Sequence record: PQ400058.1
Length of the DNA: 38,682 nucleotides
Strand: one strand, 5' to 3'
From: a phage
Numbering within the stretch: position 1 is the first letter of the stretch; each line of letters starts with the position of its first letter. Below are positions 1-38,682 of the stretch, piece after piece. The notes beneath the pieces were generated by a model, which saw only the letters and a list, made by a program, of their open reading frames with translations, was not told where the DNA came from and searched no databases. The position numbers were made by a program, and so were the translations under genes.

Positions 1-1967
1 TGAATGGTATCTTCCAGCACTTGTTGGCGGAAGCCGAACTCTTTGGACCCGTAAGCCAGCGTCATGACTGAACGCTTAGTCACGCTGCGAGTAACACCAT
101 AAGCCAGCCACTGACCAGCCAGCGTCTTGGTGCCCAGTTTGACTTTCTCAGAGATTTCACCAGTGTTCTCATCGGTCACGGTAACTACTTCGTTGTCGGT
201 CCCGTTGATTACATCTTCTTGCAGAATCACGTTGACTTTCTTAGCGACAATCCCGTAGATGTCCTGAACTGTTTCGCTAGGCAGCAGGTTAACAGCGCGA
301 CCACCTATCTCATCAAGGAGCATCGCGGAGAAGTGTTGAATACCAGAGCAAGACCCATCGAACGCCAGCGGAAGAGAGCAGTTGTAGCTTAAGCCGTGGT
401 GCTGTACCCCAGCGTACTCAAAGCAGAACGCAAGGAAGCAGAACGGAGAATCTTGCTCAGCCCACCAAGTGTTCTCCAGTGGAGACTTAGCGCAAGCCAT
501 GATGTTCTCGTGGTTGTCCTCAATGAACTTTATGCGCTCAGGGAACGGAACCTTATCGACACCCGCACAGTTTGCACCGTGGATTTTCAGCCAGTAGTAA
601 CCTTCCTTGCCGATTGGTTTACCTTTCGCCAGAGTCAGCAGGCCCTTGGTCATATCGTTACCTTGCGGGTTGAACATTGACACAGCGTAAACACGACCGC
701 GCCAGTCCATGTTGTAAGGGAACCAGATGGCCTTATGGTTAGCGAACTTATTGGCTTGCTCAAGCATGAACTCAAGGCTGATACGGCGAGACTTGCGAGC
801 CTTGTCCTTGCGGTACACAGCGGCAGCGGCACGTTTCCATGCGGTGAGAGCCTCAGGATTCGTGTCGATGTCTTCCGGTTTCATCGGGAGTTCTTCACGC
901 TCAATCGCTGGGATGTCCTCGACCGGGCAGTGCTTCCACTTGGTGATGACGTTGGCGACCGCTAGGACTTTCTTGTTGATTTTCCATGCGGTGTTTTGCG
1001 CAATGTTAATCGCCTTGTACACCTCAGGCATGTAAACGTCTTCGTAGCGCATCAGTGCCTTCTTACTGTGAGTGCGCACCAGCGCCAGAGGACGACGACC
1101 GTTAGCCCAATAGCCGCCACCAGTAATACCAGTCCAAGGCTTAGGAGGAACCACGCAAGGTTGGAACATCGGAGAGATACCAGCCAGCGCACCTGCACGG
1201 GTTGCGATAGCCTCAGCGTATTCCGGTGCGAGTTCGATAGTCTCAGAGTCCTGACCAACTACGCCAGCATTTTGACGATGTAAGCTAACCATTCCGGTTG
1301 ACTCAATGAGCATCTCAATGCAGCGAACACCTACATGAATGGAGTCTTCCTTGTGCCATGAAGACCACGCCTCGCCACCTAGTAGACCCTTAGAGAGCAT
1401 ATCCGCTTCGACAACCTGCATGAATGCTTTCTTGTAGACGTGACCTACTCGCTTGTTGAGTTGTTCCTCAACGTTTTTCTTGAAGTGCTTAGCTTCAAGG
1501 TCACGGATTCGACCAAAGCGCGCCTCGTCCTCAATAGCTCGACCGATTGCACTTGCTACAGCCTGAACGGTTGTATTGTCTACGCTCGTGAGGCAAGCCA
1601 GAGTGGTCTTAATGGTGATGTACGCTACAGCTTCCGGCTTGATTTCTTGCAGGAACTGGAAGGCTGTCGGGCGTTTGCCGCGCTTAGCTTTCACTTCCTC
1701 GAACCAATCGTTGATGCGTGCAATCATCTTAGGGAGCAGGGTAGTAATGAGAGGCTTAGCGGCAGCGTTATCCGCAACCTCACCAGCTTTAAGTTGACGC
1801 TCAAACATCTTGCGGAAGCGTGCTTCGCCCATCTCGTAAGACTCATGCTCAAGGGCCAACTGTTCGCGAGCTAAACGCTCACCGTAATGGTCAGCCAGAG
1901 TATTGAACGGAATAGCAGCCAGTTCGATGTCAGAGAAGTCGTTCTTAGCGATGTTAATCGTGTTCAT
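1..1967 (-). CDS. 1: T7-type single-subunit RNA polymerase (gene 1), N-terminal ~656 codons; truncated by window start, continues at window end
   Basis: ATG at 1967 with GAGG RBS; own translation MNTINIAKNDFSDIELAAIPFNTLADHYGERLAREQ...; frame open to position 1 (...SVMTLAYGSKEFGFRQQVLEDTIQ). Not in ORF track because no stop in window. Confidence 0.93.
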   Translation of the reverse strand, partial: MNTINIAKNDFSDIELAAIPFNTLADHYGERLAREQLALEHESYEMGEARFRKMFERQLKAGEVADNAAAKPLITTLLPKMIARINDWFEEVKAKRGKRPTAFQFLQEIKPEAVAYITIKTTLACLTSVDNTTVQAVASAIGRAIEDEARFGRIRDLEAKHFKKNVEEQLNKRVGHVYKKAFMQVVEADMLSKGLLGGEAWSSWHKEDSIHVGVRCIEMLIESTGMVSLHRQNAGVVGQDSETIELAPEYAEAIATRAGALAGISPMFQPCVVPPKPWTGITGGGYWANGRRPLALVRTHSKKALMRYEDVYMPEVYKAINIAQNTAWKINKKVLAVANVITKWKHCPVEDIPAIEREELPMKPEDIDTNPEALTAWKRAAAAVYRKDKARKSRRISLEFMLEQANKFANHKAIWFPYNMDWRGRVYAVSMFNPQGNDMTKGLLTLAKGKPIGKEGYYWLKIHGANCAGVDKVPFPERIKFIEDNHENIMACAKSPLENTWWAEQDSPFCFLAFCFEYAGVQHHGLSYNCSLPLAFDGSCSGIQHFSAMLLDEIGGRAVNLLPSETVQDIYGIVAKKVNVILQEDVINGTDNEVVTVTDENTGEISEKVKLGTKTLAGQWLAYGVTRSVTKRSVMTLAYGSKEFGFRQQVLEDTI

Positions 1968-3136: not shown

Positions 3137-3289
3137 TTAGATTTTGTTAATCTTGCGGTTGATGCGCAGTTCACGCTTAAGGCGTTCGATTCGCTGTTTC
3201 ATTGCGAAACCATCAGGTGTGCATACAGTTGCCCCGTTGGACGTGTGGATAGGCATAACGTAGTGTTTCATACCATAGTGTTTCAGCAT
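3137..3289 (-). CDS. gp0.6-like small early protein ([50 protein letters not shown])
   Basis: In-frame ATGs at 3289 and 3271, stop TAA 3137-3139; GGGAG about 10 nt upstream of 3289; sits between 0.5 and 0.7 as in T7. Confidence 0.55.
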
Positions 3290-3411
3290 TTGCGCAGTGC
3301 TCCCGTGACGATACAAGCTACCAAGTAAGCGCCTATAGCTACACCCAAAGACTCCCCAAAGGATGCGCCTACAGCTAGACCTAGAGCGGTGAGTAGACCG
3401 ATAGTAAGCAT
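3283..3411 (-). CDS. gp0.5-like small hydrophobic protein ([42 protein letters not shown], 42 aa)
   Basis: ATG at 3411 with GGGAG 8 nt upstream (alternative ATG 3417), stop TGA 3283-3285; below track size cutoff, translated by hand. Confidence 0.6.
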   Translation of the reverse strand: MLTIGLLTALGLAVGASFGESLGVAIGAYLVACIVTGALRKC

Positions 3412-3431
3412 ATTCATTACTCCCGTAAGTA

Positions 3432-3475
3432 AAGTGATAATCATAAAGGCCACTCGCTAGGAGCGACCTTGAGCC
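3432..3475 (-). promoter_or_regulatory. RNase III-type processing site (R0.5-like)
   Basis: Contains the recurrent CTCAAGGTCGCTCCTAGCGAGTGGCCTTTATGAT element (minus-strand reading); position matches T7 R0.5. Confidence 0.5.
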
Positions 3476-3477
3476 TA

Positions 3478-3633
3478 TCACTCAGCAGATTCCAAAGCTA
3501 TTGCCTTGTTGTTTTCGTACAGTTCCTTGAGTTGTACCATTGCGAGCGACCAATTGAAGCCACAGCGCACCATGTCACTATAAAACAGTACAGTTTGAGC
3601 GGTCAGACCGTATTGCGTGGTGTTGTTAGTCAT
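3478..3633 (-). CDS. 0.4: gp0.4 (FtsZ-binding cell division inhibitor in T7), 51 aa
   Basis: Hand translation [51 protein letters not shown]; ATG 3633 overlaps the TAA of 0.3 (TAATG); stop TGA 3478-3480. Confidence 0.8.
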   Translation of the reverse strand: MTNNTTQYGLTAQTVLFYSDMVRCGFNWSLAMVQLKELYENNKAIALESAE

Positions 3634-3983
3634 TACTCTTCATCCTCCTCTTCTGCGACTTCCTCAAGGTACTCGTTCAGTAAGTCCTCAGCGTCTTCCC
3701 AGAGGTCAATCGTGAGTTGCTCATAGATGCGAGCTTGCAGGATGCGAATCACGTCCTTGGTGTCCGGCATAAGACCAGAGTCCTCGAACTCAAGATCAAT
3801 GCCCTCGCTTGCCATTACGCTGAAAATGTCGCTGTAGTAGTGCGGAACGGCGCTATCGGCAGCCATGTGAACAGCATCATGCAGGTCATCAGTGTCGCGG
3901 ATGTCATCATAACGGATGTTTTCTTTCAGCATTTCGTAAGCGTGGTCGAAAACGTTGTTGTAAGTCATGTTAGACATAGCCAT
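3633..3983 (-). CDS. ocr: Ocr (gp0.3) DNA-mimic anti-restriction protein
   Basis: Track ORF 116 aa [36 protein letters not shown]...EEDEE, acidic C-terminus; first gene after the early promoters. Confidence 0.95.
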
Positions 3984-4004
3984 CTTGTGTTACCTCGTGC
4001 AGTT

Positions 4005-4060
4005 GTTAGTGAATATCATAAAGGGCACCTTGCGATACCCTTGAGTTATCCGCTATTCAT
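4005..4060 (-). promoter_or_regulatory. RNase III-type site upstream of gene 0.3 (R0.3-like)
   Basis: ATCATAAAGGGCACCTTGCGATACCCTTGAG element resembling the other putative RNase III sites. Confidence 0.4.
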
Positions 4061-4168
4061 GCACTCAAGAGCTATTTACCAGATTGTTAAAGAGCGTCTT
4101 TGGTCAGGTTTCGTTAGACCGCATCACCTTTCAGTGTGGTGACTCACTGTTCCGTCATTTCGTGGTAC

Positions 4169-4197
4169 ATCGTACCGTGTTTACTTCATGTTGTCAA
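4169..4197 (-). promoter_or_regulatory. Host sigma70-type early promoter A3-like
   Basis: Minus strand TTGACA (4197..4192), 17-nt spacer, TACGAT (4174..4169). Confidence 0.65.
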
Positions 4198-4301
4198 CCG
4201 TTTTGTTTCACCTTATGTGCCGTGGTGCGCTTAAGTCACCTAGAAGACACCGTGCGTCCGGTTGACGCTGCTAGTGTTGCTAGTGTTACCTAGCGATTTG
4301 T

Positions 4302-4331
4302 ATCTTACTGCATGTTACTTCGTGTTGTCAA
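4302..4331 (-). promoter_or_regulatory. Host sigma70-type early promoter A2-like
   Basis: Minus strand TTGACA (4331..4326), 18-nt spacer, TAAGAT (4307..4302). Confidence 0.65.
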
Positions 4332-4429
4332 TGCCTGTTTTTCGTATGACTTATCAGGCTGTCTACTTATCCGGTTGACCCCGGTATCTCAGGGAGTGGA
4401 TTTAGTCCGTTGTCCCGTTGACGAGATGA

Positions 4430-4458
4430 ATAGTAATCCCTAGGACTCTTTAAGTCAA
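4430..4458 (-). promoter_or_regulatory. Host sigma70-type early promoter A1-like
   Basis: Minus strand TTGACT (4458..4453), 17-nt spacer, TACTAT (4435..4430). Confidence 0.65.
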
Positions 4459-4511
4459 TACTCTTTTTAATAAATTCTCAAATTAATCTCTTTAAGGGTC
4501 TTTAAGTGGTA

Positions 4512-4534
4512 TCTCCTTATAGTGAGTCGTATTA
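4512..4534 (-). promoter_or_regulatory. T7 RNAP promoter phiOL-like
   Basis: Minus strand TAATACGACTCACTATAAGGAGA, a 23-bp T7 promoter consensus variant. Confidence 0.85.
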
Positions 4535-4581
4535 ATAAAGACAATGATTGAAGACTATCTCTCTATAGATAACAACAAGGC

Positions 4582-4665
4582 GTCTTTAGGATGGTCTTTA
4601 GGATGGTCTTTAGGATGGTCTTTAGGATGGTCTTTAGGATGGTCTTTAGGATTATCTTTAAGATA
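4582..4665. repeat. Tandem array of 12-bp unit GTCTTTAGGATG (5 perfect, 2 degenerate copies)
   Basis: Direct reading: units at 4582, 4594, 4606, 4618, 4630, then degenerate copies to 4665. Confidence 0.9.
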
Positions 4666-4714
4666 GGGATTGACTGAATGGGTCTTTAAGTGTATTCTTT
4701 AGGCTGTAGACGGT

Positions 4715-4746
4715 AGGAGGTGACTTTAGGAGGTGACTTTAGGAGG
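4715..4746. repeat. Direct repeat AGGAGGTGACTTT x2 plus partial third copy
   Basis: Copies at 4715-4727 and 4728-4740, then AGGAGGCTGA. Confidence 0.8.
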
Positions 4747-4756
4747 CTGAACAGAT

Positions 4757-4902
4757 AGGGACAAGAAGAGACACCAAAAGGTAAACCCAAGGGTCAACCC
4801 CAACCCTTAGGGACCCTCAAAGTCAACTGAAAGTTGACTCAAGGTGATTGGCTGGACTTTAGGGACCCCTATGGGGGAACTTTAGGTCCGTAAACTGTGA
4901 GA
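4757..4902 (-). repeat. Genome terminal repeat, single collapsed copy at the concatemer or circular-assembly junction (boundaries approximate)
   Basis: Minus strand from 4902 reads TCTCACAGTTTACGGACCTAAAGTTCCCCCATAGGGG..., matching the recalled T7 left terminus; right-end unique sequence abuts at 4903. Confidence 0.6.
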
Positions 4903-5142
4903 TAGTCACTCAGATTTTTATGGTATATTTTAAAGGACCCTCTAGGAACTCCCTATGCCCTCTCTAAGACCCTCTTTAGGTTCCACTGATAGGAGGGCCT
5001 ATCTTTAGGTATAGACCTTACGGATAGACCATTAGAGGCTCTTTATGGGTATACCTTAAGACTTGACTCTATAGGGATGAAGTGGTGTGATGCAATCATA
5101 CCGCTGAATCCCTCGGTGAGCCATCAGTCGGTCAGGAAGACC

Positions 5143-5292
5143 CTAATCGCTACAAGTGAGTAGAGAGCAAACTGTAGACTCCAGTGAACTGAGGTCTCCA
5201 GTAAGAGATGCGTACCCAAGGGCAGCACAAAGTACCACAAGAAATCGGTAGGTGACTCTATGCCGCAACAAGGTCAACAATAAGCGGAACAT
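5143..5292 (-). CDS. 19.5: gp19.5-like small protein, 49 aa
   Basis: Hand translation MFRLLLTLLRHRVTYRFLVVLCAALGYASLTGDLSSLESTVCSLLTCSD; ATG 5292 with AAGGAGGG RBS; downstream of phiOR. Confidence 0.75.
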   Translation of the reverse strand: MFRLLLTLLRHRVTYRFLVVLCAALGYASLTGDLSSLESTVCSLLTCSD

Positions 5293-5446
5293 GAGTCTCC
5301 CTCCTTTATGTTGGTCTTTAAGTTAAGGTGATATTAATACAATATAATCACCATTCTTGGAGGTCACTTTAGGTACACCATTATGCATACTTTATGCACT
5401 CTATAAGTATTCATTCAGTATCTATATAGTAACCTTTCGTCCCTCC

Positions 5447-5469
5447 TCTCCCTATAGTGAGTCGTATTA
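5447..5469 (-). promoter_or_regulatory. T7 RNAP promoter phiOR-like
   Basis: Minus strand TAATACGACTCACTATAGGGAGA (exact consensus). Confidence 0.9.
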
Positions 5470-5550
5470 ATTTATCGTGTCTTTTCAGTAACTTAAAGAA
5501 CTGACCATCCGTGGTCTATAGTGCATCCCTATGCAGTCTCAGTGAATAAA

Positions 5551-7311
5551 TCACCACTCAATGAAAGACGTACCGTAACCCTCATCGTCCTCAGAGTATA
5601 CATCAACTCCTCCCACAGACATCTCAATGATGTGCGTAGCAGCGACCGTAGGGCGCATCATGTGCTCCTCAAGGAAGTCAGCAAGCACTTCACCTTCTAC
5701 CTTAACGGAATCCAACTGCATGGACTCGCGGAGATACTCAATGCCTAACGCAAGGGCATCCAATCGGTCATCATGTGCCAGAGCGCCTTTCTCACGAGTG
5801 ATACGGGTCATCTGGTAGAACAGTGAATACTTAACGTCATGCTTACCGTCTACGTCACGAGCGGACTGGTAGTCGGCCCTAATGACCTCATCACGAATGA
5901 CAAGGCGGTGAGTCTGCATGACTGGCTCAAGGGTATCACAAATACGCATCTCCTTCATACCACGAGCACGAATCTCCTCCATTGCACAGTTGTGGTGTTT
6001 AAGAAGGATAGGACTGAACACCTTACCAAACATGCCGTCACCGAAGTTACTCTCATAGACGACCGTCTGGACTCCCCATTGCTTAGCTTTCCTAGCGAGC
6101 AACTCAAGGGTCTTATCGGAGTAACCATCGCGGAAACCTCCAGCTTCCATTAGGTAGATGTAACCGTTCAGGGTGAACAGCACAGCGTAACCTGTTTCGT
6201 CCTTACCGCGACCACTAGGGTCAATGACCAGAATCTTCTGTTGGTACTGACCAGAGTTGTTGGAGCAATCATGGTAAGTATGCAGGTCATCACCCTTAAG
6301 GCCAACGTTAGGAAGGTCCTCAATGATGTTCTGACGGTTCGGAAGCCATTGGTAATGCATTGGAGCCTTCTCTAAGTCTAAGGCCGCTACGATAGCGTCA
6401 CGGAGCCTCAGAGGGTACTTCTCGGCATCACTCAGGTTCGGGTTAAGCATGAACTGTAGTGTGAAGCCAGCCTTACCGTATTCCAACTCACGCTCACGGA
6501 GGTCCTCTCGGTCGAAGCGCACAGGGTCCGTAGGAGTCCCGGCGAGGGCCTCAGGGTTCTCATCGTACTCAGCACGTAGCATAGGGGCAAGTCGCTGTGC
6601 GTAATAGAGGTTCTCTTCGCGAGTCCTTGGGTACAGAGCAGGCCAGATGATAGTGGTATACCCACGGTTATCCTCAAGTTCCTTATAGAGAGTCATCTCG
6701 GTCTGAGGTGTGCCAAGGTAGATAACACGAGAGGAAGGCAGCGGTTTAAGCAACGCAGCGAACTCCTGAACTAGAGTCCATAGCTTCTCACGGGCACCCA
6801 TAGTCGCACTGTTAGACGGAATCTCAACATCATCCGCAATGATAATGTCAGCACGGCTACCAGTTAACTGACCAGTGATACCTACCGATTTTACACTAGG
6901 AGAGTGGTCAGGGTTAGCTGGACCTACATCAAAGCTAATTACAGAATCACGCTGTCCGGGTCTTGGCTTCAATTCAGCAAGGAAAGGCAGCAGGTCAATG
7001 ATGTTCTTAATGAAGATGGAGTTAGCGTCTGCACGTTCCTTAGAGGCTGATACGATGAGTATCTTCAACTGAGGGTCTCTCCATAAGGACCACACAACGA
7101 ACGCACATGTGATGAACGACTTACCTATACCACGGAAAGCCTGTAGGATGAACTTCTTGTTGTCCCCATTCGCCAGTACCTTAGCCATGTCAATCTGACA
7201 CTTAGTGGGCACCGGAAGGTTTAACGCCTTCCACAATACGAACAGGAAGGCCACGAAGTCTCCTTTCAGTTGCGCCACTACGAGCGCATTACGATTGGAT
7301 TGAGTAGACAC
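5551..7311 (-). CDS. 19: Terminase large subunit (gp19)
   Basis: Track ORF 586 aa [22 protein letters not shown]...; GTG start at 7311 after TAAGGAGGT; same length as T7 gp19. Confidence 0.93.
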
Positions 7312-7858: not shown

Positions 7859-8128
7859 TCACTGTAATGTGTAAATATCGTCATCTGTAAGACCGTTATC
7901 ACCGACTTTCTCTTTGTACTCTTCAAGAGCACCAGCAAGTCCACCCAAGATGTGAACATCCGGCTGCAACTTACCAATCTGGAACTTGTGTCGGTCTAAC
8001 AGTTTATTGATGGCGTTATAGAGTTGTGGAGAACGACGCTCAGGGTCCGAAAGGTCCGCAAGCATACGCTGAGCCATCGCAGTGTCCAACATCTCTAAGA
8101 ACGTAATTAGGCTCTTATCCTTTTCCAT
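7859..8128 (-). CDS. 18: Terminase small subunit / DNA maturation protein (gp18)
   Basis: ATG 8128 (MEKDKSLITFLEMLDTAMAQRM...), AGGAG 8 nt upstream; 89 aa. Confidence 0.88.
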   Translation of the reverse strand: MEKDKSLITFLEMLDTAMAQRMLADLSDPERRSPQLYNAINKLLDRHKFQIGKLQPDVHILGGLAGALEEYKEKVGDNGLTDDDIYTLQ

Positions 8129-8390: not shown

Positions 8391-8915
8391 TTATTCCTCA
8401 GGCTTCTCAGGCCAGTCATAGAAAGGCAGTACACTCAGGTCTACTTTGTATACAGCAAGACGGTAAATTCGCCACGCGTTTAGGAGACCTTCTAATCCAT
8501 CCTCCCCAAGTGCCATGAAGTCAGCATACTGCTCAATCTTCTTGGAGGCCATAGAGACTAGACTAGCCTTCTGGTTCTCAAAGTATCGCGGATACCAAGT
8601 TAGCTTCTCACCATCCCACCACCACTGCATCATATTGTAACGAGAGTATTCAGCTGGGATTTCCTCAAGTTCAACAACACCAGCAGAACCCTGAACGGCT
8701 AACTCCTGAACATCCTGTTCACACTGAATTACCGAACCGTCTTTGGCATAGACAAGTTTCCATGTATCCTCACGGAATGTCTTACGTAGTTCATACCAGT
8801 CATTCCCATTCTCGTCCTTTGAGAAGCCAACTCCGTGGTCCAGAAGGTCTGCATTCTCTTTGGTGCGCTCTGGAATATAGTTTACGAAGTTCTTATAGTG
8901 GCGTAAAGTCTTCAT
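8391..8915 (-). CDS. Tail fibre assembly (Tfa-like) chaperone, 174 aa; not present in T7
   Basis: ATG 8915 with GGGGGAGGG RBS 16 nt after the gp17 stop; C-terminus ...LLNAWRIYRLAVYKVDLSVLPFYDWPEKPEE resembles the lambda Tfa C-terminus (...[29 protein letters not shown]) as recalled. Confidence 0.7.
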   Translation of the reverse strand: MKTLRHYKNFVNYIPERTKENADLLDHGVGFSKDENGNDWYELRKTFREDTWKLVYAKDGSVIQCEQDVQELAVQGSAGVVELEEIPAEYSRYNMMQWWWDGEKLTWYPRYFENQKASLVSMASKKIEQYADFMALGEDGLEGLLNAWRIYRLAVYKVDLSVLPFYDWPEKPEE

Positions 8916-8931
8916 GTTGTACCCTCCCCCT

Positions 8932-10608
8932 TTAGTAAATATTAAAGCGTTGACCATCGTTGCGTACATACTGCATAACACGCCACTGGCAACCATCTAC
9001 CGCACCATCAGCGTTACCGTTTGTGATTCCTGTGATCACCTTACCGCCACCATCTTCTATGCCGTAAGCATTCCACAGTTGCGACCAGTTAACTCCACCC
9101 ATCGCAATGTGGTTAACGGTATTTGCAACAAGCCAGCCAGCTAGATGACCATGACCACCCCATACAGAGCCTGCAATGTTTCCGTCAGTGGACATTGCGG
9201 CACCACCTGCCTTAATCGTAGTTGGGAATTGAACCTCGCCATTTGGGTTTAGCCAAATGTCATAAGATGTCGCTTGAGATGCTTCCGGTTTCCACCGGAT
9301 TAGGCCGTTGCCGTTCGTAGAACCACCTCGAACCCATCCAATTTCTAACCCTGCATCGTAGAAACTCCAACGAGTGTTACAGACCCATCCACCTTGGGTC
9401 AAATCACCCGGACCATATGCCACCGTCTTAACGGCAGTATTGGCCTGATTAGTAACACCTAGCGGTTTGTTGAATCCTTCTACCTGCAAACCATTGTAGC
9501 AATGCATGAAGTCCCCGAAGTGCATCTCCCACGTAGCCGAATCATTAGCTTTACTTTGAACCTGAAATGGAACATGCCAGTCCCCTCTATGTGGGTGCTT
9601 AATGGCCCAAAACGTATTTGATACATATTGTCCCTCAGCAGGGTTATACTCATGTACCATCTGCCCCATAGAGCCAGCTTCGGCAGTTGCCCTCAGGGTT
9701 GAAGCACGATTAGCAATAAGTTCACCGTTAAACTTAGCAGTAGCCGCCCACGAAACAACGTGGTCTTGGCTTACTTCCTCAATGGCACCTGCAAGTGCAT
9801 TCCAGTTACCAAGTTTGTCTGCCTCCAACTTAGCGCGGTCTGCTTGCTGTTCTGCCGAATGGGCAGAGTTAGCGGATGCCGTGGCATAGTTCTCAGCGTT
9901 TACCTCAGATTGATGCGCAGCAGTAGCAGAGTTACCAGCAGATGTAGCGTATTGACCAGCCGTATTCTTGAACTGCTCGGCTTCGTCTCTGAAACCCTTG
10001 GTCTCATCACGCCACTGCTTCGTATTCGTAGCGTTAGTGCTGGACTCGTTCTTAAAGCCCTCCGCTTGATTTCTGAAAGTCTCAGCCTCATTGCGGAACT
10101 GTAGGGCCTCATTACGCGCCTGCCATGAGTTCTGGTTCATGGTCTTAAGTTGACCAAACGGAACAGCGTCACGGTCATCCACGGCGTTCGCTAGGTTCAC
10201 AATTCGACGACCACGGGCATCCAAGTGACCATCATTATTGACACCGATAGTATCCGCAGTGAGGTCACGGGCCTCTTCTGCTACGTGCATCGTTTGAATC
10301 TGAGCGACGTTAAGGTCATATGCACGGAGGATTGAACCATCCGTAAAGTCAACCAATCGGTCTGTCGTGGAGGTTACTCGACGTAACTCAATGGTCGTGT
10401 AGCCATCAGCTGTACCCCAAGCCTTGGTCAGTGAGATGGTAGTGCGAGTAGCAAAGCGGTAGTCTGTATTAATAGTAAGGACCTTTCGGTCTACGCCAAT
10501 AAGGGTTACTACTACGAACTTACGGGCTAGATACTCAAACGGGATATTAAAATCACGAGTGGAGCCGTCTAACTGGTAAGTCAAAACGGTTTTAATTACG
10601 TTAGCCAT
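8932..10608 (-). CDS. 17: Tail fibre protein gp17, 558 aa: T7-like N-terminal attachment and coiled-coil region, non-T7 distal receptor-binding region
   Basis: Track ORF MANVIKTVLTYQLDGSTRDFNIPFEYLARKF...; matches recalled T7 gp17 to about residue 265 then diverges (…HPHRGDWH…GGHGHLAGW…QRFNIY). Confidence 0.9.
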   Translation of the reverse strand: MANVIKTVLTYQLDGSTRDFNIPFEYLARKFVVVTLIGVDRKVLTINTDYRFATRTTISLTKAWGTADGYTTIELRRVTSTTDRLVDFTDGSILRAYDLNVAQIQTMHVAEEARDLTADTIGVNNDGHLDARGRRIVNLANAVDDRDAVPFGQLKTMNQNSWQARNEALQFRNEAETFRNQAEGFKNESSTNATNTKQWRDETKGFRDEAEQFKNTAGQYATSAGNSATAAHQSEVNAENYATASANSAHSAEQQADRAKLEADKLGNWNALAGAIEEVSQDHVVSWAATAKFNGELIANRASTLRATAEAGSMGQMVHEYNPAEGQYVSNTFWAIKHPHRGDWHVPFQVQSKANDSATWEMHFGDFMHCYNGLQVEGFNKPLGVTNQANTAVKTVAYGPGDLTQGGWVCNTRWSFYDAGLEIGWVRGGSTNGNGLIRWKPEASQATSYDIWLNPNGEVQFPTTIKAGGAAMSTDGNIAGSVWGGHGHLAGWLVANTVNHIAMGGVNWSQLWNAYGIEDGGGKVITGITNGNADGAVDGCQWRVMQYVRNDGQRFNIY

Positions 10609-10660: not shown

Positions 10661-10683
10661 TCTCCCTATAGTGAGTCGTATTA
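10661..10683 (-). promoter_or_regulatory. T7 RNAP promoter phi17
   Basis: Minus strand TAATACGACTCACTATAGGGAGA; its TAA is the stop codon of gene 16. Confidence 0.9.
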
Positions 10684-13600
10684 TTTCCTAGGTGTCTCCT
10701 TGATGTGGATACCGTTGGCCTCATAAATTTTCATAATTAGTTGCTGCGTGATAGGGTCGTTCGGAACAATCTCACGCATGGTATTAAACATCCCTGTACG
10801 AAACTCCATCTCGGTAGCCTTGTTAGGCGCTTTCAGTAGCGATACAGCATTAAGTGCCGTACCACCGACCTGCCCTGCGAACCCCAAAGCAGGAATCTGA
10901 TCACCTAGAGCACCACTAATCATACCAGTCACTTGACGACCTGTTACCGCTTTTGTGCGATCGCGTTCTTCTGGTTGCTTCGGTAGTACCGTGGAGCGTG
11001 TGTACTTATAGGTATCATCACCAAACACACCAGCGATCATATCGTAGATGCTAAGTGGCGAACCTAAGTGTGAGCTACGGGAGATAGACGCATGAGCAAT
11101 CATCTTCGGGTCTAGTGCCATCTTAAGGTACTCCTTACGTTTGTCCTCAGGTAAGGCAGCGGCCTTTAGGTGCGCCTGTCCAACGAAGTAGCCACCAGCA
11201 AGCCCACAGGAAACAATGTGAGTTAACGCTTGGTCTAACGCACGGTTGTTCTTTGTGGCCTCATAGAAGCTACGGACAAATCGAGCATTAAGCGACTTGA
11301 TAACGAAGTTCTTAAATTGCATCACCATCTTTACGCCAGCACCATACGCAACGGAATCTTGAGAGGAAATCTTATGTGGTCGCATGATTGTCTCTCCAGC
11401 CACTTTGTCAGCAAGCCTCCACAAATCCATTGTGCGTGGGTCGTAGGTGAACGCCCTTTTGTCCTTGATTGTGAACTTACCGTTAGCATCACGAGTGGTG
11501 TGGTCCCGAAATAATTGCTTGATACCATTCCACTGCTCAGGACTGATTGAGGCAGACTTAAGATAATTTGCCTTACCAAACTTGGCACCAGTCCCTGATA
11601 GCACAGCACTTGCAATATCCCCTAGCACACCCTGACGGGCTGCGTCGATAATGTAGTTTGTTGTTCCATTAAGCATTACCGTCCATGGGGAGCGGGCTGC
11701 TAACTCCTGCGTCCCGAAACGAAGAGTACCAACCACATTAGCCAACACAGCGTTGGTGTCTGTAGACTCCCTAAGTCTGCGAATGTGATCTTCACGACTC
11801 GGACGGATTAGCTGGTCTAGTTCCTTCCCGAATACCATACTGTGGAGTTCTTTAATCTCAGAGGCTCGCATTGGTTTCCTACGGTTAACCCAGTCGTTAA
11901 TCATAGGGATTCCATGAGTCACCGCAGAGACATTACCTTTGATCAACATAGCACCTATCTCCGTGAAGTTCTGGAGAGGCATATAGAAGTTCTTAGCGAA
12001 GAACGTCAGGTCATTCAGAGAGCGTAAAGCTGTCCCTAAAGCACCTTCTGGGCTACGACGGGCGCGACCAGTTAGAATCTTCACTGTATCCTTAAGAGCT
12101 TCTACTTCGCCCTTCAACTTCCCGTTGCCTTCGGCCTGCTTACTCAGTGCCATAATTTCATCCTTGAGTTCCTTGGTAGTTTTACCAGAGCTACCCATGA
12201 TAGCAATATCGCCATTTACACGACGGTCATATGCTGGCATAAGGATGCGCTGGCTGAACACTCGAATGTCATCTACTGAGAACATAGAGCCATCTGGTAA
12301 CGTGATTGGTACATCGGTGTCAAAGAGGTTACGTGCTTCCAGAAAGTTATTGTTCTCGATACCAACAAGCCCCGTGATATTCTCATCAACAATAGAAGAC
12401 GCCGAGAACTGGTCTGTATGGGAGATACCATATGCCTTGTCCATAGCATACTTCCGGACCATTTCGTGTGTTACGTCTTTAGTTGACTTAAGCCCGTTGA
12501 CTTCCATCAGGTGCTCGTCGATACGTGCCTTAACTGGTGGACGCAGATAGTATGACGCAAGGGAGCTTTCAGCGATAGCCCTCTGGAAAGCCTCTCGACT
12601 CCCCAAACGTTGAATATGAAAATTCTTCAATTGGGTGTCATACACTCGCGGAATGTATGTACCTTTGTTGCGACTGTCGGGGAAGATACTAACCGCCTTT
12701 GAATTACCAAACACAGCAGGGTTTTCCATAAGTTCACGCTTGAGGTCATAGTGACCTTTAACGTGGCGCATCAGGTCTAGCTCTTTGGGAGACAAGTTGA
12801 CCTGCATTTCAGGATGTTCGATAGCAAGAGCAATTTTACGGTCGATGAACTCAACGGCCTCTGCTTTGCTCATCTTAGGCGCACCTACTGTGAACTCAGG
12901 GTCTTTCATGACTTCCTTCATCTTATCATAGTATAGGTTCCAATCGCGGTTATCGTTGGATGATAGCCTACTATGGATATCATCAGCGGTCGAGCCGAAC
13001 TTACCGTTAGACCCTGATTCCATACCAGTTGGAGAGCGCACTAGGTCACGCGCAATGGAGCGAACTCCCGTGTTCTCAGAGCGTAGTGTCTTAAGGCCAA
13101 TCTCAGTGAACCCACCTAAGGAGATACCTCTGGCTGAACGCTCAGGATTTATCGCCTCAAACTCACTTAGTGTCTGTGGGTTCAGTGGGTTAGTGTCACT
13201 GAGGATTTGACCTTGAGGGAGGACGACTGCACCTGGCTCGGTGTCCAATGGTGCGTAGTTAACCCCACTGTACTCTCGGTCGAATTTGGTACTGTCTGTG
13301 TTCATCTTAGACATGTCCACAGAGTTGGCGTTAAAGGCAGTCTCACGGGCTTCCATACGCATCAACGGTCCGACGAACTCGTTGTTAAACTCAGCCTCAG
13401 GTTTGCTACGCCTCAATCCAGCGGCTATAGTGTCACTGATTGCAGACATTCCTGCCCCAAACACAAGGCCACCTAGTACCGCACCAGTATAATTAGCGTC
13501 TCCACCAACTATAGACGTTCGCAACCCTTCTGAGGCCATGTTAATAGCTGCACTCTCAGCACCGACAACAAGAGCCTTATTGATTAACTTAAATCCCTTA

Positions 13601-14655
13601 CCTGTTACACCAACCAACGGAACATACGATAGAGGGTCGAATGCCGCACCAATAACGCCAGCGGAAAGCTGTGCCCCGATACCTGCATCAGCTTTCTTTA
13701 GGTCATTCTCGTAGTTACGCTTAGCTAGATTGATAAGGTCATCCCAGTTCTCACCGTCACCACCAGTAACCACAGAGTAATAACTAGGAGGCAACCCACT
13801 GTTACGTAGTTTGTCCAAGTCTTCCTTGGTAGGCTGGTAGGAGTTCCAACGCGTAGGCGTGATAACATCCTTAAACACATCAAAACCATTATCGAGGCGA
13901 CCAGCACGGAAGGCCATGCCGAGGACTGAGTTGTCAATTTCTGCACTTGCAGCGTCTTTGAATCCGAAGAATATTGAGCGGTCGTCATACTCAGATAGTT
14001 CCTGTTTATGGTGGTCCCAAAAGTCAGTAGCGAATGATTTCGCTGGGGCCTCCTGCTCGATACCTTTAATGTCCAATCCAGTTGACTCAGGGATAGCATC
14101 CGTTACTTTGCGCTTCCCTTCTACCTGAATGTCTCCTAAACCAACATCAGAAGGGATACCTTTACCCTTTGGGGTGATTCCACCGAACGCTTCCAACTGA
14201 CCACTCATTGGCGACCTAGCTACATCCATGAGGTTACGTATGTAGTTACGACCCTCCTCGGAGATAGCTGAGAAGTCGCCCTTTGTGTATGCTTCAAGTT
14301 GTGGACTCCCTAAGCGTCCCTCACCTTGATTGTACGCAAGGGCAGCTTTGAGTTCATCCCCATCGAATTTACTCACCAGTCCAGCAAGGTGCTTGGCAGC
14401 AGCATCAATAGCCAACTCAGGGTTCAGTCGGTCGTCGTCTGGACCATCGGTGACTCGCAACCCCATAGCCTTAGCTGTAGCCTTGGTGAATTGCATCATG
14501 CCTAACGGTCCAGTCTTAGATTTAGCTGTTGGTTGAAACCGTGATTCTGTCCAAGCGACTTTACGTAAAAGGTCATAAGAGACCCCTGTGGCATCAGCCG
14601 CCTTCTGGAACAGACCATCATACTCACTTGGTACGTTCTTATCGTACTTATCCAT
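10681..14655 (-). CDS. 16: Internal virion (core) protein gp16 with N-terminal lytic transglycosylase domain
   Basis: Track ORF 1324 aa MDKYDKNVPSEYDGLFQKAADATGVSYDLLRKVAWTESRF...GPLGMMQFTKATAKAMG. Confidence 0.93.
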   Translation of the reverse strand: MDKYDKNVPSEYDGLFQKAADATGVSYDLLRKVAWTESRFQPTAKSKTGPLGMMQFTKATAKAMGLRVTDGPDDDRLNPELAIDAAAKHLAGLVSKFDGDELKAALAYNQGEGRLGSPQLEAYTKGDFSAISEEGRNYIRNLMDVARSPMSGQLEAFGGITPKGKGIPSDVGLGDIQVEGKRKVTDAIPESTGLDIKGIEQEAPAKSFATDFWDHHKQELSEYDDRSIFFGFKDAASAEIDNSVLGMAFRAGRLDNGFDVFKDVITPTRWNSYQPTKEDLDKLRNSGLPPSYYSVVTGGDGENWDDLINLAKRNYENDLKKADAGIGAQLSAGVIGAAFDPLSYVPLVGVTGKGFKLINKALVVGAESAAINMASEGLRTSIVGGDANYTGAVLGGLVFGAGMSAISDTIAAGLRRSKPEAEFNNEFVGPLMRMEARETAFNANSVDMSKMNTDSTKFDREYSGVNYAPLDTEPGAVVLPQGQILSDTNPLNPQTLSEFEAINPERSARGISLGGFTEIGLKTLRSENTGVRSIARDLVRSPTGMESGSNGKFGSTADDIHSRLSSNDNRDWNLYYDKMKEVMKDPEFTVGAPKMSKAEAVEFIDRKIALAIEHPEMQVNLSPKELDLMRHVKGHYDLKRELMENPAVFGNSKAVSIFPDSRNKGTYIPRVYDTQLKNFHIQRLGSREAFQRAIAESSLASYYLRPPVKARIDEHLMEVNGLKSTKDVTHEMVRKYAMDKAYGISHTDQFSASSIVDENITGLVGIENNNFLEARNLFDTDVPITLPDGSMFSVDDIRVFSQRILMPAYDRRVNGDIAIMGSSGKTTKELKDEIMALSKQAEGNGKLKGEVEALKDTVKILTGRARRSPEGALGTALRSLNDLTFFAKNFYMPLQNFTEIGAMLIKGNVSAVTHGIPMINDWVNRRKPMRASEIKELHSMVFGKELDQLIRPSREDHIRRLRESTDTNAVLANVVGTLRFGTQELAARSPWTVMLNGTTNYIIDAARQGVLGDIASAVLSGTGAKFGKANYLKSASISPEQWNGIKQLFRDHTTRDANGKFTIKDKRAFTYDPRTMDLWRLADKVAGETIMRPHKISSQDSVAYGAGVKMVMQFKNFVIKSLNARFVRSFYEATKNNRALDQALTHIVSCGLAGGYFVGQAHLKAAALPEDKRKEYLKMALDPKMIAHASISRSSHLGSPLSIYDMIAGVFGDDTYKYTRSTVLPKQPEERDRTKAVTGRQVTGMISGALGDQIPALGFAGQVGGTALNAVSLLKAPNKATEMEFRTGMFNTMREIVPNDPITQQLIMKIYEANGIHIKETPRK

Positions 14656-14681
14656 TTAGGGCCTCCTTATGTAGCCTTTAG

Positions 14682-16943
14682 TTACTCCTTACGCCCATAG
14701 ATGAACTTCGGAGTCTGTTTACGTTTCTCTCGGACTCGTTTAGCAGCAGCTTCACGAGCTTTCTTAGCGGCAACTATAGGTGCTCGCTTGGTGGCATCAT
14801 TAATAGCCTCATCACGGGCCTTCTCAACGGCTTCCGTTGCGAGACGCTCTTGTGTTTCCTTCCAGACCTTGGACAACATCTCCTTGTCGTAACGAACCCG
14901 TGGGCCAGTCCCTGTAGTTGGCATGATGTAGATAGACTTCCCGATTACCGAGACGGTCATCTTATCAGAGGCCATACTTGGGTTAGCCGCTATGATTCCT
15001 TTAAGAGCAGCGTCAATAATATCCTTACCTTGCTTCCAAGATTTAGGGTCATCGTTTACCTGTAGATAGTTCCTCGGAATTACCCCAATGACTCCCTCAC
15101 TGTCTGAGCTATCGTCATTAAAGGTCGTAGTGGACTCCTTGAGGAACTTCTGCATCTCAGTCATAGCCATATCGACATTATTGGTACGATACTTAACCGA
15201 GTCATAAATCTTACGAGCAAGTCCCCTTAGTTCTGTCGGCATATTAGCTATCTCCGGAACTTTAGAGTCATTAAGTGCTTGCTCAAAGGCTCTATCATCT
15301 TCGAATCGTTGCTCCTTGGAACGTGTGGCCATCTGACGGTCAGCATCAATCAACTCCTGCACATCAACACCCTGTCTGTCAGCTAAGTCCATGGTCAAGA
15401 ATAGCTCAGCTTGCTCAGGGTACAGTGACGCTATTAGGTATGGGTCTGCGTTGCGGATTCTGCGTAAGGCATCCATCGCTGGAGTCTTATCTGCTAACTT
15501 ACCATTCATCACAGAAGAAGACCACTCCTGAGCCGCATCCTGAACCATCGTTCCTATTGCAGTCCTGAAAGGCCCGTCCTTAGAGTCTGATTGCAGGTAC
15601 TGTAGTTTGAGTCTATCTTTGGCTCCATCTGGGATGTCCATAGCGTCTATGTCAGCCAGCTTCTTGTTAGCGTAGTTTACAATGTCGCTATGCTTGAACT
15701 CCCCAGTGTTATCGTTTGTAGGCATATCCTTAAAGTCCGTAGAGACCCACTCTCCATTGATTCGCTTCTGATACTGAGCGTCAATAACCCTAAACTTATT
15801 ATCGGCCTTCTGAGCCTTATCGAGTGCTTTGGCCTCGTTCTTGGCCCACTCCACCATCTTGGCTCGGAGTTGCTTCTGTGCCTCTATAAGCGTGGCGCGT
15901 TGAGGGGTCATCTGCTCTCCGGGCTGGTGTTTATCTAACTCAGCCTTTATTCCTTGGAGCTTCTCCCAACCAACACGAGGGTCGTCTACGAACAACGCAG
16001 AGTTGACATCAAGTTGAAACTTCTCATTCAGTTTCGCATCGTTGTCATATTGTGCTCTCTGGGCGGTCACCATAAGAGCGTTCCACTGCTCTTCACCCAT
16101 AAGTTCCTTATAGGTCGTAGTGGCTCCGTTGAGTGTTACCTTCTTATCACCAACTCGCATCAGGAAGTCAGCACCACCAGCACGGCTAGAAGCATCACTG
16201 AATGCTTGGCTTATAAGCTGGGTAGCTTGGGCATCGGAAGGGATGGCACCAGTCACTAGACCATTGGAGATATAATTCTCAAAGAAGTCAGCAGAGTCTG
16301 GGCGACGAAGCATATCAGGGTCTTGAAGGACACCGTTGAGTTCCACTCGGCTGTTAATCACTGCGCCCTTCTGAGCCTGTTGACTCAAGAAGCTATCGTG
16401 TGCCCCATACAGTGAGATGTTACGCTCAGTGATGTCCCCATTGAAACCACGCTGATAATCAACATCCTCAGGGTCAATCCCGAACTGCTCAGCGTATGCC
16501 TTAGCGCCCTCTTGAAGACGACTATGGCGATACTGTTCCATCTCTTCACGAGTACGGAAGACACCCTCTTTGACCTTCTGCATAACGTCATCGTCCACAA
16601 GGTACGCAGCGTTACGCCCAGTCTTGACTCGGAGTGCTTCCATAGCGTATGGGTCATCCTGATACAGAAGGGTCCCGTTGTTGAGAGCTTCTCGGCGTTG
16701 CTCAGGGGTCAACTTACGAATAATCTCGTTAGAGCGTTCGTCAGCTAGGTCACGTGCTCGTTGTTCCTTAGCGGTATACATATCGGCACCAGCCTTAGCG
16801 AACCGACCAATGGCGTCCAATAGGCTTGACCTTGGCTGTTCGGCCTGAGTGGTTGCTGCACGATAGCCCATACCACCAGCGCCACCACGTAGCCGAGAGA
16901 GTCCCGGTTGTGCCGCTTGAAGGGCAGATTCAATTTTACTCAT
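14682..16943 (-). CDS. 15: Internal virion (core) protein gp15
   Basis: Track ORF 753 aa; position and size as T7 gp15. Confidence 0.9.
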   Translation of the reverse strand: MSKIESALQAAQPGLSRLRGGAGGMGYRAATTQAEQPRSSLLDAIGRFAKAGADMYTAKEQRARDLADERSNEIIRKLTPEQRREALNNGTLLYQDDPYAMEALRVKTGRNAAYLVDDDVMQKVKEGVFRTREEMEQYRHSRLQEGAKAYAEQFGIDPEDVDYQRGFNGDITERNISLYGAHDSFLSQQAQKGAVINSRVELNGVLQDPDMLRRPDSADFFENYISNGLVTGAIPSDAQATQLISQAFSDASSRAGGADFLMRVGDKKVTLNGATTTYKELMGEEQWNALMVTAQRAQYDNDAKLNEKFQLDVNSALFVDDPRVGWEKLQGIKAELDKHQPGEQMTPQRATLIEAQKQLRAKMVEWAKNEAKALDKAQKADNKFRVIDAQYQKRINGEWVSTDFKDMPTNDNTGEFKHSDIVNYANKKLADIDAMDIPDGAKDRLKLQYLQSDSKDGPFRTAIGTMVQDAAQEWSSSVMNGKLADKTPAMDALRRIRNADPYLIASLYPEQAELFLTMDLADRQGVDVQELIDADRQMATRSKEQRFEDDRAFEQALNDSKVPEIANMPTELRGLARKIYDSVKYRTNNVDMAMTEMQKFLKESTTTFNDDSSDSEGVIGVIPRNYLQVNDDPKSWKQGKDIIDAALKGIIAANPSMASDKMTVSVIGKSIYIMPTTGTGPRVRYDKEMLSKVWKETQERLATEAVEKARDEAINDATKRAPIVAAKKAREAAAKRVREKRKQTPKFIYGRKE

Positions 16944-35975: not shown

Positions 35976-36995
35976 TTACATCTTCTCTTGAGGGTTGTCC
36001 TCGGTGCCACGGAAGCAGGTGAAGGAGGGGTGTCTGAGACTCCCATCGTTAGTTACCTCCATAAATCCAATCTGGCAAGCCCAGCCATTATAGTAGTCCT
36101 CGCCATGTTCTTTAACGTTAGCTGTAAATTCATCCATTAAGGCGCGAGAGATGTTATTGGCATCGACAAGACGACCAGTCTCAAGAAGCACCTTGAATCC
36201 AATTACCTTACCTTCGTTAGCAAGTCCTTCTGTTCCCCAGTTTACACCATTAATGATTCCGTCAGCTTCCTCAAGAGGCTTAAGTTTCCACCAGCCGGAC
36301 TTCTTACCGCGCTTGTAGATGCACATCGGGTCTTTCACAATGAGACCCTCATGTCCTTCTTCACGCTTCTTCTCGTACAGTTGCTGTAGTTCTACCATAT
36401 CGTAGACCTCGTAAGACTCAGCCGCTTGCCATTCGATTTCAGGGAAGTATTCCTGTAGCAGAGGCAGCATGTTCTTAACGTGTTCCTGCATGAGCAACGT
36501 CATGACATCACAGTCTTCCCCAGACTCCACGATGTGCAGAGGGAGGATAGCGTACAGTCGGACACTCAGATGTTTGGTATCCAACGCGAACTCAACCTTG
36601 GACCCCTTGAGTGGTGGTACACCGCCAACGTCGAACTCAAAGTTATTCTTGTTGAGCCACTTGGTACGCAGTAGGCCGGACCCTGTGTTAAAGTCTACGC
36701 CCTTGACCATTAGTTCCCCATCGAGCATAAAGCCATCCTTGTAGAAACAACGGTCATCGTTAAGCAGACGCTTCCAGCGAACATCAAACCCGTTTAAGTG
36801 CTCCAGTGCCGGAATCGTTTTAGATACACGAGAGAGCCAGCAACTGTTAGCTGTATTGTCTACGCAGATGTTACCGCGCACACCATCGTACTTAATGTCA
36901 GCGATAAGATACCCAGCGTTATCCAGAGCTTTCTTAATGGCAGACTCTACGAAAGATACTGCCTTGTATGGTGAAGTCTTAAAGTTAATAATCAT
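35976..36995 (-). CDS. 1.3: ATP-dependent DNA ligase gp1.3
   Basis: Track ORF 339 aa MIINFKTSPYKAVSFVESAIKKALDNAGYLIADIKYDGVRGN... (KYDGVR ligase motif I). Confidence 0.93.
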   Translation of the reverse strand: MIINFKTSPYKAVSFVESAIKKALDNAGYLIADIKYDGVRGNICVDNTANSCWLSRVSKTIPALEHLNGFDVRWKRLLNDDRCFYKDGFMLDGELMVKGVDFNTGSGLLRTKWLNKNNFEFDVGGVPPLKGSKVEFALDTKHLSVRLYAILPLHIVESGEDCDVMTLLMQEHVKNMLPLLQEYFPEIEWQAAESYEVYDMVELQQLYEKKREEGHEGLIVKDPMCIYKRGKKSGWWKLKPLEEADGIINGVNWGTEGLANEGKVIGFKVLLETGRLVDANNISRALMDEFTANVKEHGEDYYNGWACQIGFMEVTNDGSLRHPSFTCFRGTEDNPQEKM

Positions 36996-37405
36996 ATGTA
37001 TTTCCTCAGTTTGCCATTTCGTATGTAGTGTATTGTTGAAGCAGCCACATTAAGTGCCCTTGCTAGCTCCCTGCCGGAGCGAGGGTCCGTCCGTATCATA
37101 TCGACCTGCTCATTAGTTATCTTTCTAGCACCACGGCCTTTGATAGCCATGTCTCTAAGGTTGTCTGCCTGTGTGCCCTTGGTTAGATGTGCAGGATTTA
37201 CACACCACCTATTGTCACAGGAGTGTAGGACTATATCGCTCTTATTCAACTCACCGTTGAACAGAATGTACGAAGCCCTATGGGCATATATAGGCTTACC
37301 ATGCAGGCGGAACCGTCCGTAACCATTGGGCTGGATACTACCAATCCAACGCAAACAGTCACCACATGGTTCGGTCTTATTGTTGAATCGTTCTATGTCG
37401 TTCAT
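36992..37405 (-). CDS. HNH-family (homing-type) endonuclease, 137 aa; not at this locus in T7
   Basis: Track ORF MNDIERFNNKTEPCGDCLRW...HGKPIYAHRASYILFNGELNKSDIVLHSCDNRWCVNPAHL...; HNH motif; ATG 5 nt after phi1.3; stop overlaps ligase ATG (ATGA). Confidence 0.85.
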   Translation of the reverse strand: MNDIERFNNKTEPCGDCLRWIGSIQPNGYGRFRLHGKPIYAHRASYILFNGELNKSDIVLHSCDNRWCVNPAHLTKGTQADNLRDMAIKGRGARKITNEQVDMIRTDPRSGRELARALNVAASTIHYIRNGKLRKYI

Positions 37406-38016: not shown

Positions 38017-38682
38017 TTACGCGAACGCGAAGTCTGACTTAAGGATGTCTTGGAGATTCAAGTTACCTTTAGCCGGAAGTGCTGGCATTTTGTCCAATTG
38101 AGACTCATGCAACTGGTCAGCGAACTGGTCATAGAAGTCAGCAAGTACATCACAAGACTCATAGGTGTCCACCATCGTTTCACGCACAGCTTTGAACAGG
38201 TTGGCAGCGTCAGCCGGAATGGTCCCGAAGGAGTCGTGAATCAGTGCAAACGATTCGATTCCATACTTCTCGTGTGCCCACACTACAGTCTTACGCAGAT
38301 GGCTACCGTCTTGGCTGTGTACAAAGTTAGGAGCGATGCCAGACTCCTGCTTGTGAGCGTCAATCTCGCTATCTTTGTTGGTGTTAATGGTCGGCTGTAA
38401 GCGGAACTGACCAAGGAACATCAGGTTCAAGCGAGTCTGAATTGGCTTCTTGTATTCCTGCCACACTGGGAACCCATCAGGAGTTACCCAATGCACAGCG
38501 CAACGCTTGCGAAGAATCTCGCCAGTCTTCTTATCTTTGACCTCAGCAGCCAGCAGCTTAGCGGCAGACTTGAGCCAGTTCATAGCCTCTACAGCGGCTA
38601 CTACAGTCACGCTCACAGCTTCCCAAATCAGTTTCGCCATGTAACCAGCAGCCTGATTCGGTTGAGTGAACATAATACCCTT
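38017..38682 (-). CDS. 1: T7-type RNA polymerase (gene 1), C-terminal 221 codons; 5' part runs off window end and resumes at window start
   Basis: Frame open from 38682 (KGIMFTQPNQAAGYMAKLIWE...) to stop TAA 38017-38019; ends ...LQDILKSDFAFA. Confidence 0.93.
   Translation of the reverse strand, partial: KGIMFTQPNQAAGYMAKLIWEAVSVTVVAAVEAMNWLKSAAKLLAAEVKDKKTGEILRKRCAVHWVTPDGFPVWQEYKKPIQTRLNLMFLGQFRLQPTINTNKDSEIDAHKQESGIAPNFVHSQDGSHLRKTVVWAHEKYGIESFALIHDSFGTIPADAANLFKAVRETMVDTYESCDVLADFYDQFADQLHESQLDKMPALPAKGNLNLQDILKSDFAFA

Follow-up and report, generated by a model that had tools for sequence, protein, structure and literature searches.

A standard T7-type terminal repeat and concatemer junction inside the genome record of a previously undeposited T7 relative

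Layout of the window and its relation to T7

The window, that is, the whole stretch of phage DNA analyzed here (38,682 nucleotides, record PQ400058.1), matches T7-group phages along its full length in the nucleotide comparison, the phage genome being its minus strand, which is colinear with T7 at ~88–90% nucleotide identity. Read on that strand, the terminase genes and gene 19.5 at one end of the genome are followed, across a region of repeats, signals, and promoters, by gene 0.3 at the other, and gene 1 is divided between the two window edges (Table 1). Besides the two terminase subunits and the promoter phiOR, the phage RNA polymerase (gp1, about 98% identical to that of T7) and the lysozyme gp3.5 (98.7%) are present, as in the T7 group.

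Table 1 Features of the junction region and of the genome ends in the window
Feature	Position	Strand	Basis
Gene 1 (RNA polymerase), codons 1–655 and 2 nt, running off the window start	1..1967	-	tblastn, 98.6% identity
Gene 0.3 (Ocr), first gene of the genome	3633..3983	-	95.7% identity to T7 gp0.3
Three candidate sigma-70-like early promoters, counterparts of T7 A1/A2/A3	4169..4458	-	Consensus scan
Phage-polymerase promoter phiOL	4512..4534	-	One mismatch to T7 consensus; position as T7 phiOL
Left-end unique CCTAAAG array (SRL equivalent)	4582..4749	-	CCTAAAG counts, tandem-repeat finding, alignment
Candidate sigma-70-like promoter toward the terminal repeat, counterpart of T7 leftward A0	4670..4698	+	Consensus match only, TTGACT-17-TATTCT
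ATCTGTT, class II signal of the concatemer junction (CJ) for pausing/termination of phage RNA polymerase	4750..4756	-	Directly after the terminal repeat
Putative direct terminal repeat, 146 bp, single copy	4757..4902	-	Boundary motifs common to five reference phages
Right-end unique sequence adjoining the terminal repeat, with CCTAAAG-type heptamers (SRR equivalent)	4903..5040	-	Alignment with right ends of T7, 13a, Yanou, phiA1122
Gene 19.5 (49 aa), last gene of the genome	5143..5292	-	ORF; 94.6% identity to T7 gp19.5; Pfam DUF5465
Phage-polymerase promoter phiOR, transcription across the junction	5447..5469	-	Exact T7 consensus; position as T7 phiOR
Gene 19, terminase large subunit	5551..7311	-	99.1% identity to T7 gp19; Pfam Terminase-T7_RNaseH-like, 2.5e-39
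Gene 18, terminase small subunit	7859..8128	-	98.9% identity to T7 gp18; Pfam DNA_Packaging_2
Gene 1, codons 663–883 and stop, beginning at the window end	38017..38682	-	tblastn, 98.2% identity

When re-linearized at 4902, the genome is fully syntenic with T7 (37 kb aligned, mean identity 88%), and 49 of the 53 T7 proteins have counterparts in the window. The T7 gene order, together with close similarity throughout the genome, places the phage in the T7 group (Studiervirinae); it is a Teseptimavirus and a new species-level relative of T7. For comparison at the junction itself, a T7 construct was assembled from NC_001604 by joining its final 1.9 kb, right terminal repeat included, to the left end starting at nt 161. 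This construct, consisting of right end, one repeat, and left end, aligns colinearly and unbroken to window 6681..3141 (90.5% identity over 3580 nt, E = 0), and the alignment carries on as far as window position 1, taking in genes 0.7 and 1. The agreement with T7 goes well past what chance would give. Since the construct aligns in one block, the right-end and left-end sequences are contiguous in the window via a single copy of the repeat. Positions 4903..4924 are the reverse complement of ACCATAAAAATCTGAGTGACTA, and the minus strand read from 4902 begins TCTCACAGTTTACGGACCTAAAGTTCCCCC... (in a longer stretch, TCTCACAGTTTACGGACCTAAAGTTCCCCCATAGGGG...). The earlier note, which had described the window as a circular permutation with left-end sequence starting at 4902 on the minus strand and directly abutting right-end sequence at 4903..4924, is thus borne out in its permuted order by the colinear junction alignment and by the synteny after re-linearization, and is right to the base as to the abutment; its description of the locus as a concatemer junction, or a linear, terminally redundant genome, is supported by the same alignment, by the boundary motifs, and by the single repeat copy described below. 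Very probably, the window represents almost the entire genome of a lytic T7-like phage, given in rotated order and on the minus strand.

Elsewhere in the genome, the window also differs from T7 at several points. Gene 17 (tail fibre; 8932–10608, minus strand) is directly followed, with an overlap at its end, by an ORF of 201 aa (8391–8996, minus strand) encoding a tail-fibre assembly protein of the lambda gpK/Tfa type (Pfam Caudo_TAP, 1.9e-9; PHROG 136, 1e-38). T7 has no Tfa-type gene, and the gp17 of the window is not T7-like C-terminal of about residue 296, suggesting that the receptor-binding module has been swapped and has brought its own chaperone. An HNH homing-type endonuclease gene (36992–37363, minus strand; Pfam HNH_3) lies between genes 1.2 and 1.3 and is 38–39% identical to T7 gp2.8 and gp7.7; for T7 genes 2.8 and 7.7 this relocated gene is the sole match, and no counterpart is present at the positions that they occupy in T7. 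In the comparison with the T7 proteins, no counterpart of genes 1.4, 3.8, and 5.3 was detected in the window. Within the internal virion proteins (10681–16943, minus strand), gp16 and gp15 are 66% and 79.5% identical to those of T7, against 93–100% for nearly all other proteins, and these sequence identities indicate a probable mosaic origin of the ejection-protein module.

Boundaries and copy number of the terminal repeat

The reference set for the repeat boundaries comprised the records that carry the repeat at both ends (n = 5), the ends of which were compared exactly: T7, 13a, Cedecea phage Yanou, phiA1122, and T3, with repeats of 160, 170, 159, 148, and 231 bp, respectively. In all five, the repeat starts after ...ATCTGA(G/A)TG(ACTA/GGTA) with TCTCA(C/T)AG. 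The corresponding stretch of the window (4924..4894, minus strand), ...AAAAATCTGARTGNNTA and then the TCTCAYAG motif, is identical in T7, 13a, Yanou, and phiA1122, and related in T3. At the other end, the repeat closes with ...TGTCCCT (TGTCCCCT in phiA1122), and ATCTGTT follows in all five references; window 4763..4750 (minus strand) likewise reads TGTCCCT plus ATCTGTT, as in the T7 group. The left boundary in the window therefore reads ...GAGTGACTA followed by TCTCACAGT at 4903/4902, and the right boundary ...CTTGTCCCT followed by ATCTGTT at 4757/4756. Because both boundary motifs are intact, we infer a repeat of 146 bp at 4757..4902; by the T7 repeat boundaries, the left genome end would lie at 4902 and the right end at 4757, the same coordinates that had been proposed before, which coincide with the boundary motifs of all five references. 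The earlier proposal of a single terminal repeat also held, in that self-BLAST and a direct-repeat search found one copy only: the self-comparison returned the repeat itself and chance matches of 10–12 nucleotides, with no second copy and no long direct repeat in the window. The exact termini, and the duplication of the repeat in the virions of this phage, are predictions from homology.

The differences in repeat length among the phages are confined to one internal stretch, in which the window is without 24 nt, phiA1122 is without 25 nt, and 13a has an additional 12 nt, the end points being different in the window. Motif-defined repeats in T7-like contigs of IMG/VR measure 144–174 bp, so that a repeat of 146 bp is unremarkable. 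The best full-length match to the repeat is 91.9% identical, and none above 95% with determined ends was found in the phage collection. At repeat position 10 (window 4893), the window has T (TCTCACAGTTTACGG), as does T3, against G in each of the four Teseptimavirus references. The repeat further contains small palindromes, AGTCAACT/AGTTGACT at 4821–4839 and CCCCCATAGGGG, which are counterparts of T7 palindromes and were considered as candidate hairpins for processing.

The signals on either side of the repeat follow T7 as well. Over its full length, the transcribed strand of the window has a single ATCTGTT, which lies exactly at the repeat boundary and is kept at the same place in T7, 13a, Yanou, phiA1122, and T3. 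A class II pause/termination signal of T7 RNA polymerase has been described at the concatemer junction, and class II signals have been reported to be intolerant of base changes (bioRxiv 10.1101/2021.01.11.426313). CCTAAAG is found 24 times in the window, five-fold over the 4.7 occurrences expected, with 14 of the 24 lying within 4584–5373; two are in the right-end unique sequence, at 4974 and 5003. The left-hand array includes 6.9 tandem copies (4582–4664) of a 12-nt unit, GTCTTTAGGATG (phage strand: CATCCTAAAGAC), an expansion relative to T7, 13a, Yanou, and phiA1122. The position of the plus-strand sigma-70-like promoter matches that of T7 A0 at nt 224, and the A1–A3-like matches (4458–4430, 4331–4302, and 4197–4169) are in the same order as in T7 and 13a. 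ORFs within 4540–5140 were considered as genes and rejected; all are short, and one, a plus-strand ORF of 40 aa with SLGW repeats, is the 12-nt tandem repeat translated.

Compared directly with T7 (NC_001604), the window thus has the same order of elements: the left boundary (in T7, ...GAGTGACTA followed by TCTCACAG), the right boundary TGTCCCT/ATCTGTT, the CCTAAAG arrays, phiOR, gene 19.5, phiOL, A0–A3, and gene 0.3, at 90.5% identity over the 3.6-kb junction region. It differs from T7 in the length of the repeat (146 versus 160 bp), with 24 nt gone from the promoter-distal third and small indels elsewhere, in the G-to-T change at repeat position 10, in the 12-nt unit of the left array, and, owing to assembly, in holding one repeat copy. 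The Yersinia phage phiA1122 and Escherichia phage 13a have the same boundaries as the window.

Origin of the internal single-repeat junction

A junction of this kind is found in many other records. The 1-kb junction region is present as one internal piece in at least 33 GenBank phage records; when a single place covers at least 80% of the junction-spanning query, the junction must be internal. Permuted records with an internal single-repeat junction and an arbitrary record start include Yersinia phage Y (JQ957925), Shigella phage ESh3, Salmonella phage C2, and Escherichia phage CICC 80001. These are phages different from the present one, the best match to the 1-kb junction region being 92% identical. 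The annotation of Yersinia phage Y states "TR ... present only at 3' end", with the CJ terminator adjoining. Among 16 IMG/VR contigs that carry the right-hand boundary motif, the single-repeat junction is internal in seven, and the motif lies one repeat length from the contig end in nine. The IMG/VR copy of Escherichia phage CICC 80001 (L015) has ACCTGTT in place of ATCTGTT and GTGCCCCT in place of TGTCCCT at the repeat boundary; in view of the reported intolerance of class II signals to base changes, either the sequence is in error here or this phage does without the canonical CJ pause. Contig PUSW01000046.1 (20.6 kb) of the bacterial assembly GCA_003323205.1, referred to here as L012, is a T7-like lytic phage 93% identical to the window and has a 160-bp single-copy repeat junction inside the contig; its presence in that assembly is probably due to phage contamination, or to infection, of the culture that was sequenced. 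Exact searches of the viral, metagenome, and genome contig collections with 30- and 38-mers from the junction and the window end gave no match, nor did exact-protein look-ups of Ocr, gp17, and gp16, and that of gp19.5 gave a match only in a different, 93%-identical phage. The feature is the terminal repeat and concatemer junction usual for T7, in a relative of T7 that had not been deposited before.

T7-group phages replicate into head-to-tail concatemers, in which one copy of the repeat is common to neighbouring genomes; processing at fixed positions, in which staggered nicks serve as starting points for extension synthesis, then gives each end its repeat again (PMC5557969). Assemblers overlap the identical terminal copies and begin the contig at an arbitrary position, T7 being the example in the PhageTerm paper (PMC5557969). 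We consider, with a probability of about 90%, that the two terminal copies of the present phage have likewise been merged by assembly into one, and that the virion DNA is linear with an exact short direct terminal repeat. In the contig, one repeat (4902..4757) would then link the right-end unique sequence to the left-end unique sequence, and the contig ends would fall arbitrarily within gene 1 with 19 nt left unassembled. Ends lying side by side are a routine by-product of assembling such genomes and not a new biological feature. With terminal direct repeats of this type, sharp read termini are expected at both repeat boundaries, with twofold coverage between them (PMC5557969).

At the break in gene 1, T7 RNA polymerase residues 1–655 correspond to window 1967..3, with two more bases (CA) opening codon 656, and residues 663–883 correspond to 38682..38020, leaving 19 nt of T7 (nt 5138–5156, GCCAGCTATTGATTCCGGC in T7) that have no counterpart in the window. 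The gap is identical when measured against L012, a second, independent relative, so that the loss of "about 19 nt" stated in the earlier note can be given as exactly 19. As 19 is not a multiple of three, a real deletion would shift the frame of the polymerase gene at codon 656 of 883, which shows the window to be an unclosed contig and not a circle. Of the phrase "assembled as a circle", accordingly, the part that stands is that the collapsed repeat lies within one linear contig, which passes straight through it; the circle is not closed, as the contig ends are 19 nt apart in gene 1. With these 19 nt added, the computed unit length is 38,701 bp. It is very unlikely that the break marks something real in the sample, be it two co-existing RNA polymerase variants near codons 656–662 or a site resistant to sequencing, or else that the DNA sequenced was replicative and did not come from virions.

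Of the other accounts of the junction, the one that leaves the element itself untouched supposes that it was physically present in the sequenced material, with most reads derived from intracellular replicating concatemers in an infected culture or a metagenome. A true concatemer junction and a collapsed assembly are identical in sequence, and a bacterial genome assembly, a setting in which DNA from outside virions is plausible, includes a contig of a related phage laid out in the same way. The collapse of the repeat, however, happens with pure virion DNA too (PMC5557969), so that concatemeric reads are not needed, and this account, which we regard as unlikely, would alter only the origin of the reads, not what the element is. 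It is highly improbable that the terminal repeats are real but bounded elsewhere than at 4757 and 4902, whether through a difference in repeat length or a displaced cut site. Repeat length does vary, from 148 to 231 bp in the curated records and over the range given above for the IMG/VR contigs, and the window has the G-to-T change at repeat position 10 relative to the four Teseptimavirus references; yet all of the length variation is inside the repeat, both boundary motifs are kept in five references, one of which (T3) belongs to another genus, and are intact in the window, and the terminase shares 99% identity with its T7 counterpart.

We give hardly any credence to a truly circular genome, to headful packaging of a circularly permuted genome without fixed termini, or to the 19-nt gap as a real deletion in a circle, for which the permuted order of the window is the one argument. 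The large terminase is of the T7 and not of the headful (pac) type, having the T7-specific RNaseH-like domain and 99% identity to gp19; all T7 end-processing signals, including those for fixed ends, are conserved; and fixed ends are known for T7-group phages (PMC5557969, PMC4925675). Moreover, a frameshift at codon 656 would strike the very polymerase on which all phage-specific promoters depend.

Predicted maturation and meaning of the junction

The layout of the window does not differ from that of a real T7 concatemer junction, which serves as substrate for T7 maturation. In the T7 pathway, pausing of the polymerase–lysozyme complex at the concatemer junction starts maturation (PMC3276506). 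All of the end-processing components and signals occur in the window and are almost the same as in T7, so that the same mechanism is to be expected here. RNA polymerase starting from phiOR (5469..5447) would pause at ATCTGTT (4756..4750), just past the repeat, with the aid of the lysozyme, and the terminase gp18/gp19 would then be recruited and would cut at the two repeat boundaries. Repair synthesis would duplicate the repeat, yielding a packaged genome that starts with TCTCACAGT... and ends with ...CTTGTCCCT; this virion DNA, including the second repeat copy, has a predicted length of about 38,847 bp. For this phage, the cuts, the doubling of the repeat, and the physical ends are proposed by analogy with T7 and T3.

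The practical value of these results lies in the record, which should start at 4902 (minus strand), with the second repeat copy added and the 19 nt of gene 1 filled; the ORFs that run across the repeat arrays, such as 4544..4666 (plus strand) and 4686..4790 (minus strand), should stay unannotated. The junction raises no new biological question. The repeat of 146 bp is one further natural length variant of the T7 terminal repeat, and, as far as the sequence comparison goes, it suggests that ~24 nt in the promoter-distal third of the T7 repeat may be dispensable, whereas both boundary motifs are invariant.
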